DNA of 63,612 nucleotides, the filler included, from Stramenopiles sp. TOSAG23-6 (lineage: Eukaryota): the NCBI GenBank assembly GCA_900128565.1. It is 30 parts of 30 records of this genome, joined end to end, with 100 filler letters (N's around TTAATTAATTAA, not from the genome) between each part and the next. Parts side by side here need not be neighbours in the genome. Positions count along the whole stretch, not along the records: positions 59,504 to 61,508 come from LT638383.1; 29 more parts are not named here. One strand, written 5' to 3'. The translations under genes were made by a program, and so were the position numbers. The stretch's first letter is position 1. Each line of letters starts with the position of its first letter. Below are positions 59,623-61,304 of the stretch, piece after piece. The notes beneath the pieces were generated by a model. That model was not told the DNA's origin and ran no database searches. It saw only the letters and a list, made by a program, of their open reading frames with translations.

Positions 59623-61304
59623 CTAAGAACTATGTTTCAACATCAAGTATCCACGTGGTAGAATATCTTTTGAATCTTTCGACTGCATTGCTTTAAATAA
59701 CAATTCAGCAGGTGCCCAGAATGGCAAGTATTTAAATCTTGCAACATCTAGAACAAGACACATTTTTGAAATTGGTTCAAAAGCAGCTATTGGCGAAAAA
59801 TGTCCATATACTGTGAAAAAATATATTAATTTTTTTTTCTTGTTAGGACCTAAAACAAAATTTTTTTTTTTTTTTTTTTNNNNNNNNNNNNNNNNNNNNN
59901 NCATGAAAACATACATCACCAGTTTGTCCAAGAGTTGAGCGACTGAAATTTATAATCATTCGATGATGAGTTTCTTTAGTATTTGATATATTAGTAGTAG
60001 TATTGTGATCACAATGTACAGAATGATAATAATTTTGATTTAAATCAAGATTTGAATCAAGATTTGAAATAAGATTTAAATCACTTTCAAAGTCAATTTG
60101 TGATACAGATTTGATTTCAGCTTTGGTACATCTTTTTTGAGTATAAAATGTCCGACAACTCAAATTAGGGTTAGGGTTTTGTGTCCGACAATTTAAATTA
60201 GGGTTAGGGTTTTGTGAACAGATACTTTGATTCATATTATTAGGGTTAGGGTTACGATCAGAAGAATGTAGTTGATGTCTAGAGGTACGAGATGGACAAG
60301 AAGATTTCTCACATAAACTCATTCTCATCTTATTCAGTCTTGAACGTTCAATAGTACCAGTATACATTTGTCTCACATGTATTGTGAAAAAAATATTTCA
60401 AAAAAAAAAAATCATGAAAAAAATCATGATATGAAAACGTACATGAACGCCATTACAAGACGCTAATTCACCAAGTTCATGAAGACTTAAACCTTCACGT
60501 TGAATATCTGGTATAGCTTTGTGACGCTCACAACATGTTACTAAATTTTCATCTGTGTACCAACGCCATATATTGTGAAAAAAAAAAAATCAAAAAAAAA
60601 TTGTGAAAAAAAATTGTTCAACTCTATTTGGATTGTATGAAACAATACAATAAGAAAACATAGGAAAATAAAATTAAAATTAGGTTTTTGAGAAACATAC
60701 ATGGAATTGAGGAACCATGAACCGGATGTTTCGACCATGCTTTGCGAAGAGGATCGACACCCATACTATTTAATGTGACAGTCAAAGACGTTAATGCACA
60801 GAATGCTGGATCAGACTGTGTTGCATAATTTTCGGAGAGGTTCCAATAAGAGCCGTCTAGAGTTCCAGAATCAAATGCACTCTTAAAATATTTACGACCT
60901 TGAGGAGAATTGAAAGGTACAACTGCGGGATTCATCTCAGAAACTGGTCTTTGGTAACAAGAAGAACGTAAATCTTCGTTATCGTCGGACTTTGTAGAAT
61001 CGCCAGCAACACAGATATCATTTGCAGTCATACTTTTACGTGCCAGGTTTGAAAAACGCCTCACACCGGGAACAACTAAGGGTTTGACTTTACTCTTTTT
61101 ACTTAATGCAGAATTTGAAAAACGTCTCCCACGTGGAACAACCAAGGGGACTTTACTCTTCTTACTAACGCAATATATATCTTCGATATCTGCTAATGCG
61201 CAGGTGGACGAACCAAAACGAGGGCACGAGTCTTGAAGGCTGCAGCTGCTCCGATTTCTCTTGCAAAAGAATTCACAAGCACGGCGTAAACCAACCTGGG
61301 TCAT
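59623..61304 (-). CDS. PCS: Phytochelatin synthase; exons 61304-60701, 60567-60443, 60376-59915, 59805-59623
   Basis: Catalytic triad motifs QSDPAFC, GHFSP and LDVARFKY; also PWRWY. Confidence 0.93.

Follow-up and report, generated by a model that had tools for sequence, protein, structure and literature searches.

A variant U1 snRNA matched to introner-like GT…AT introns, probable in a phytochelatin synthase gene of a marine stramenopile

A phytochelatin synthase (PCS) gene of an uncultured marine protist, Stramenopiles sp. TOSAG23-6, carries three introns that start with a normal GT donor and, as homology indicates, end in AT. We consider it probable, from the gene, its repeat family and the spliceosomal RNAs encoded in the assembly, that these introns derive from an introner and are removed by the major spliceosome with a matching variant U1. 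The main addition of this analysis is a U1 arm matched to a family of introners that end without AG.

The PCS gene and its three introns

The window, the whole 63,612-nt stretch analyzed (filler included), is a chain of contigs of about 2 kb from a 21.1-Mb assembly of 6,236 contigs that is incomplete and holds duplicate contigs. The PCS gene occupies one contig on the minus strand (59504–61508). An earlier note on this DNA had placed three introns in it, and their coordinates hold (Table 1): removal from GT to AT leaves a stop-free PCS frame of 457 amino acids (61304–59623) in which IP-WRWY (PWRWY) and QTGD-GHFSP are rebuilt, as the note had also proposed. The predicted protein (PF05023) keeps AFCALTSL, GHFSP and LDVARFKY in this open frame, which we take to be the catalytic Cys, His and Asp motifs of PCS.

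Table 1. Features of the PCS gene and of its intron 3 junction, in window coordinates; a slash marks a proposed cut
Feature	Position	Strand	Description
PCS exon 1	60701..61304	-	ATG at 61304; AFCALTSL; PF05023 E 6e-15
Intron 1	60568..60700	-	133 nt; cat/GTATGTTT (GTATGT)…CACAATATAT/ggc
PCS exon 2	60443..60567	-	Open reading frame and homology
Intron 2	60377..60442	-	66 nt; cat/GTACGTTT (GTACGT)…CACAATACAT/gtg
PCS exon 3	59915..60376	-	Ends …QTGD; open reading frame and homology
Rival GT donor	59918..59919	-	Used by public model P0001, giving QT-VY-GHFSP
Intron 3	59806..59914	-	109 nt including 22 N; gat/GTATGTTT (GTATGT)…CACAGTATAT/gga
Branch-site-like GTCCTAAC, intron 3	59842..59849	-	Putative branch A 59843, 37 nt from the AT end; presumed function
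CAG	59811..59813	-	5 nt upstream of the intron 3 AT end; family CACAATAY reads CACAGTAT here
PCS exon 4	59623..59805	-	GHFSP, LDVARFKY, stop codon; PF05023 E 3.5e-20

Intron 1 interrupts the Trp codon of PWRWY. According to the earlier note, introns 1 and 2 lack an intact core. This stands for intron 1, where no branch motif is clear, but in intron 2 a degenerate branch-like CATGAT places its A 35 nt before the intron end, which is the modal distance in the family described below. The core TACCTAAC of that family is absent from both longer PCS introns, with GTCCTAAC present in intron 3.

In all three introns AT ends both the exon and the intron and G follows on both right-hand sides; the cuts can be shifted 2–3 nt to the left or 1–2 nt to the right with identical mRNA. 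RT-PCR is therefore unable to fix the exact cut register, and the recommendation of this gene as an RT-PCR target holds in part: such an assay can tell AT from CAG at intron 3, not GT-AT from a slid register. This junction suits a test well, since the short products differ between canonical and non-canonical splicing.

A second PCS gene, apparently split over contigs C5024 (locus L001) and C2573 (locus L004), has family-like introns elsewhere in the gene; the PCS paralogue of this genome reads QTGGGHFSP uninterrupted and has no intron there. The low-complexity insert in exon 3 shares its position with inserts in the closest homologues. Telomere-like TTAGGG/AACCCT repeats lie within this exon (60165–60255), where they are translated as NPNPN, and occur in other exons and introns as well (loci L128, L268, L269 and L004).

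Homology favors AT over the canonical rivals

We scored the spliced protein against a profile of 149 PCS homologues that left out the public model of the gene itself. The GT-AT protein reached 284.8 bits. Among all in-frame GT/GC-AG pairs with the donor between 45 nt upstream and 24 nt downstream of the boundary and the acceptor no more than about 45 nt from it, the best alternatives scored 268.4 bits at intron 1, 267.8 bits at intron 2 and 276.5 bits at intron 3. This comparison, which the earlier note had suggested, ranks GT-AT first at all three introns and supports, at the level of sequence, an AT end at each PCS junction. The note's preference for AT over the adjacent CAG is thereby upheld, with a margin of only 8 bits at that junction. 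An in-frame AG at 59839 was rejected, since it adds 11 residues before the catalytic His and costs 18.7 bits.

The strongest competing account is that intron 3 is canonical and ends at CAG 59811, the family perhaps being non-canonical elsewhere. The CAG had been set aside on the ground that it shifts the frame. That is correct with donor 59914, but GT donors 59919 and 59910 are in frame with it and the first is used by public model P0001, so frame alone does not exclude CAG. Both pairs are also GT-AG, the CAG is preceded by a T tract and lies 32 nt past the branch motif, and ordinary GT-AG introns are spliced in the same organism. We nevertheless consider this account unlikely. Donor 59919 drops the Gly found in 136 of 137 homologues and donor 59910 yields QTGD-VLY-GHFSP, adding three residues directly before the catalytic His; the cost to the profile score is 8.3 bits. 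The motif GH[FY][SA]P is present in 137 of the 149 homologues, with G at residue −2 in 136 of these and V in none; residue −1 is D in 59 of them and never Y. A one-residue insert occurs at the motif in three of the four closest homologues (QTGE-H-GHFS). Both rival donors moreover pair weakly with either the consensus or the variant U1 arm (4.5–6 of 11 positions).

The use of 59919/59811 by P0001 carries its own difficulty. This public model of the same PCS gene, the only match of a first homologue search, also gains its AG ends by dropping WRWY and about 85 further residues, and therefore behaves like a prediction forced to GT-AG. The AT reading is thus the likely one on sequence grounds, with a live canonical rival at the intron 3 junction.

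The PCS introns are decayed copies of a repeated family

The three PCS introns are decayed copies of an introner-like family of about 100 nt. Its core motif, TTGTACCTAAC, has 8,731 matches in the 21.1-Mb assembly against 16 for a reversed control, a count that duplicate contigs inflate and decay deflates. Two parsers anchored on the donor, branch and CAMAATAY-like motifs recovered 133 distinct copies from about 0.9 Mb of DNA, overlaps included, spread over many unrelated genes. The median length is 99 nt among the first 104 copies, and the consensus (about 100 nt) reads GTAYGTTT … TACCTAAC … CAMAATAC. The branch motif CCTAAC (canonical CTAAC) mostly lies 33–47 nt from the intron end and is accompanied by a T tract.

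The parsers left the two bases after the terminal anchor unconstrained. These are AT in 102 of the 133 copies, followed by TT (10), GT (7), AG (5), CT (3), AC (3), GA (2) and TG (1); AG acceptors thus occur in 5 of 133 family copies, and in none of the three PCS introns under the best model. Removal through these two bases keeps the frame in 84 of the 95 copies where a coding model could read both flanks and fails to do so in 11, the other 38 having been dropped for short or ambiguous flanks. Sense-oriented copies whose removal restores the frame are found in HSP70, adenylosuccinate lyase and mitochondrial carrier genes. Two HSP70 paralogues carry copies at different codons, and GT-AT outscores every in-frame canonical pair at all five of their introns by 3–15 units, at one of them by only 3. 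A canonical AAG/GTAAGT…CAG intron is also present, for example in the HSP70 gene on locus L145.

The PCS introns are among the most diverged members: their similarity to the nearest family copy is 0.17, 0.19 and 0.31 against a median of 0.68, within the lowest 1–3%, partly through length changes and the N gap. They still retain GTAYGTTT and CACARTAYAT at their ends. Decayed interiors with kept terminal motifs fit selection on the ends, which agrees with what the earlier note had suggested. Across the family, the AT end is retained in 48 of the 66 older copies and in 54 of the 67 younger ones.

The one U1 snRNA found matches the family donors

We then examined the spliceosomal RNAs. The sole U1 snRNA found has the 5' arm AAACGUACAUG where the consensus is AUACUUACCUG. 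The predicted RNA spans the whole Rfam RF00003 model (positions 1–166; E 3e-13), with a score of 54.1 bits that lies below the gathering score of 69.5. Its changes U2A, U5G and C9A pair with intron +7 T, intron +4 C/T and exon −1 T, making the arm complementary to the family donor CAT/GTAYGTTT including the exon-side T. At PCS intron 2 its complementarity to the donor, CAT/GTACGTTT, is exact (11 of 11 pairs); the arm forms 10.5 of 11 pairs at intron 1 and 9.5 at intron 3, against 4.5 and 6 at the rival donors.

At all of the 84 donors compared, pairing is stronger with the variant arm than with the consensus arm (mean −9.6 against −1.9 kcal/mol), a comparison that is partly circular on the intron side, where the parsers largely imposed donor positions +1 to about +6/+7. 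The exon side was not imposed: T stands at −1 in 116 of 133 copies, A at −2 in 97 and C at −3 in 52, and the exon ends in AT in 89 of 133 copies against a background of 9.5% in the flanks. GTAAGT donors pair less well with the variant arm. A standard second U1 may be missing from the incomplete assembly, because canonical AAG/GTAAGT…CAG introns exist.

The U5, U2, U1 and U4 genes lie head to tail within 645 bp with spacers of 2–23 nt, possibly as one transcription unit. The cluster occurs on two contigs, C1146:9–645 (loci L101 and L005) and C6122 (locus L006), which are identical over 664 nt and diverge in their flanks. The pairing sites of the other RNAs (U2 GUAGUA, U5 loop 1, U6 ACAGAGA) are canonical. 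A pattern scan of metagenomes for the variant U1 matched at least 120 loci, and among the matches listed none resembles this U1.

We rejected an altered Prp8 as the cause: at otherwise invariant sites its private changes number 39, compared with 12–54 in five controls (90 homologues collapsed to 5), and its alpha-finger region equals the human one except for two residues. At the equivalent of human residues 1250–1254, Prp8 (locus L100) reads MTAGQATF where the 90 homologues read MSSGATTF, MSSGSTTF or MASGSTTF. For U2AF35, a search of the incomplete genome with one degenerate motif gave no match.

The U1 match also bears on the position of the cut. If the register lay 2 nt upstream, the introns would be AT…AC or AT…AT, perhaps minor-class-like, and the mRNA would be unchanged; all three PCS introns allow such a shift, and CCTAAC is similar to the U12 branch motif. 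We hold this to be quite improbable, given that it is the GT register in which both the U1 arm and the U6 ACAGAGA box pair, that ATATCCTT is absent from the 5' ends and that no U12 snRNA was found at E≤1 in the incomplete assembly. The donors read GTAYGTTT, not the U12-type RTATCCTT. Furthermore, among frame-kept copies the upstream dinucleotide deviates from AT in 15 and the downstream one in 2, as expected if the upstream copy is exon.

It is also very doubtful that the inserts are transposon copies that inactivated the PCS gene or remain mostly unspliced. The RNA runs searched with window 55292–63612 (24 listed, word shares of 0.05–0.09) match by estimate what the beta-tubulin part alone would give, and the genome holds a second PCS gene; against this, the four PCS exons are stop-free with intact catalytic motifs, conserved genes carry sense-oriented family copies whose removal restores the frame, and the interiors of the introns decay while their ends persist.

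Origin of the AT end

In 95 of 133 copies the intron and the exon before it end in the same two bases; no empty allele turned up. Matches other than AT (TT, GT, CT) number 11 among 104 copies against 1.06 expected, and none of 20,000 permutations reaches 11. This excess points to a 2-bp target-site duplication, as far as sequence can tell. Such a duplication does not explain every copy, since 22 of the 133 have an AT intron end behind a non-AT exon end. These 22 have diverged somewhat further (median 0.60 against 0.70, p = 0.037), and the exon that follows them begins with GT in 11 of 22 cases against 12 of 80 (p = 0.001). Their differences are silent in 4 of 15 cases against 20% expected, with neither silent-site enrichment nor a register signal. 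Either the intron end was later driven to AT in these copies, or the copy itself brought the AT.

The terminal inverted repeat of the family is just GTAT…ATAC (4 bp, or 6 bp with the flanking AT, from sequence logos). Together with the boundary duplications, this 4–6-bp repeat (ATGTAT…ATACAT) recalls the non-spliceosomal route proposed for euglenid nonconventional introns, for which section 6 of PMC11282704 gives precedent, but such removal is highly improbable here, as the family conserves a U2-type donor, a branch motif and a T tract, the donor is matched by U1 and the repeat would be too short for stable pairing.

A proposed route from element to acceptor

For the reading that we prefer, GT…AT introns of introner origin removed by the major spliceosome, we propose the following course. 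An introner-like element of about 100 nt would have entered coding sequence at thousands of places, often with a duplication of the two bases that end the exon. A U2-type spliceosome would excise the copies from their GT through the two bases that follow …ATAY, most often AT. The variant U1 may read the family donors and favor copies behind …AT exon ends; the duplicate of such an end would therefore become the acceptor. The 3' cut would be set by branch distance and by the T tract and CAMAATAY terminal motif, not by AG, with an acceptor that keeps A at −2 and tolerates U for G at −1. A CAG that arose 5 nt upstream in intron 3 would therefore be skipped. In spliceosome structures two pairs form at the intron end, one between the A at −2 and the branch A, the other between the G at −1 and the G at +1. 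Of these contacts, an intron ending in AT would keep the first and lose the second. By analogy with Fritillaria, our best guess for a compensating 3'-end factor is a divergent U2AF.

More tentatively, and with somewhat less than even confidence, a transposon invasion may have changed the code of the major spliceosome from AG/GT…AG/ to AT/GT…AT/. The main U1 would have been re-tuned, including on its exon side, and the second step freed of the terminal G so that a nearby AG is ignored. Donor co-evolution and acceptor relaxation would then be one linked event, because the exon end selected by U1 is the sequence duplicated into the acceptor.

Comparison with known systems

The family resembles the introners of Micromonas, Aureococcus, fungi and dinoflagellates, which the available text of PMC11282704 describes as short repeated intron-forming elements at lineage-specific sites, with an element-borne donor, a 3' end co-opted from the target-site duplication and a short terminal inverted repeat. 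Those introners take AG from their duplication, whereas the co-opted end here is AT (or TT, GT, CT) and the duplication is 2 bp and absent in some copies (PMC11282704). At the DNA level we found many similar copies at unrelated positions whose removal restores the coding frame, and signs of recent gain in the uninterrupted QTGGGHFSP of the PCS paralogue and the differing copy codons of the HSP70 paralogues. As for U2-type introns, the family has a GT donor that pairs with U1 and U6 and a branch motif with a T tract, and lacks the AG acceptor. The repeated non-canonical introner introns of Amoebophrya share boundary duplications and inverted repeats with it; their ends are variable, their duplications span 3–5 nt and U1 is reported absent in the accessible parts of PMC11282704, whereas here U1 is present and matches.

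Fritillaria borealis offers another case of transposon-derived introns without AG ends; there the major spliceosome removes them, as is proposed here. Its introns are AG-AC or AG-AT, with a standard U1 5' end, a duplicated U2AF and changed m6A, according to the text available from PMC13326754. A U12 system is absent there and was not found here (PMC13326754). Here, in contrast, the donor is still GT, the acceptor alone is non-canonical and the change affects the U1 arm itself, a route that the same source states Fritillaria did not take (PMC13326754).

U1 arms fitted to odd donors are described in the accessible portion of bioRxiv 10.1101/2022.06.08.495308 for Entamoeba (AACAAAC), Mastigamoeba (ACGUAC) and Physarum (ACAUAC). 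The arm found here shares the ACGUAC core of Mastigamoeba and has an extra 5' A like that of Entamoeba (bioRxiv 10.1101/2022.06.08.495308). Its C9A matches an exon-side T, whereas that portion of the source reports no exon-side change, and the matching donor here belongs to a repeat family with non-AG acceptors, unlike in those three organisms (bioRxiv 10.1101/2022.06.08.495308). In mammals, a handful of GT-AT introns are listed in the part of PMC1557818 available, mostly U12-type, with a U2-type one in DGCR2 conserved between human and mouse. GT-AT ends can thus be spliced there too, whereas here they are the main end of thousands of introns (PMC1557818). A literature search retrieved no report of dominant GT-AT introns or of an altered stramenopile U1; subscription papers lay outside this search, and the supplements of large introner surveys may include the family.

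The constancy of the terminal AG is attributed to U2AF and to contacts within the catalytic core, in the account that the available text of PMC13326754 gives. A main intron class with a normal GT donor and branch site and no AG would let the acceptor be studied apart from the donor, a separation that neither Fritillaria nor Amoebophrya offers. The matched U1 offers a concrete, testable case of a splicing machinery adapting to an intron-making transposon. Gene models of this organism would be mis-spliced, as in P0001 with its missing WRWY and its QTVY beside the catalytic His.

Distribution among genes and other observations

A codon-bias scan of the analyzed loci picked out beta-tubulin (partial, window 62907–63612), EF2, RPL13a, RPL21, RPL28 and SNU13, all without a family intron, and a 6-kb Prp8 frame has none either (intron-free genes, including EF2, ribosomal, SNU13 and Prp8, lie on loci L123, L068, L041 and L100). 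Ordinary genes hold up to about 15 family introns in 3.5 kb (locus L049). Highly expressed genes may exclude the family; in the GTPase, HSP70, L7Ae and mitochondrial-carrier families, which were also searched, no gene that is clearly highly expressed carried a family intron.

Near 7500–7690 of locus L038 (locus L007, 1454), two family elements apparently adjoin with no exon between them. An inverted duplication at window 32159–33953 has its palindromic join near 33030–33082, in the middle of a family element, and looks like an amplification chimera. The window also holds coding tandem repeats at 57398–58190 and 50500–50972, respectively an acidic unit of about 21 residues (DDDDGGWGDVN) and a duplicated Cys-rich block.
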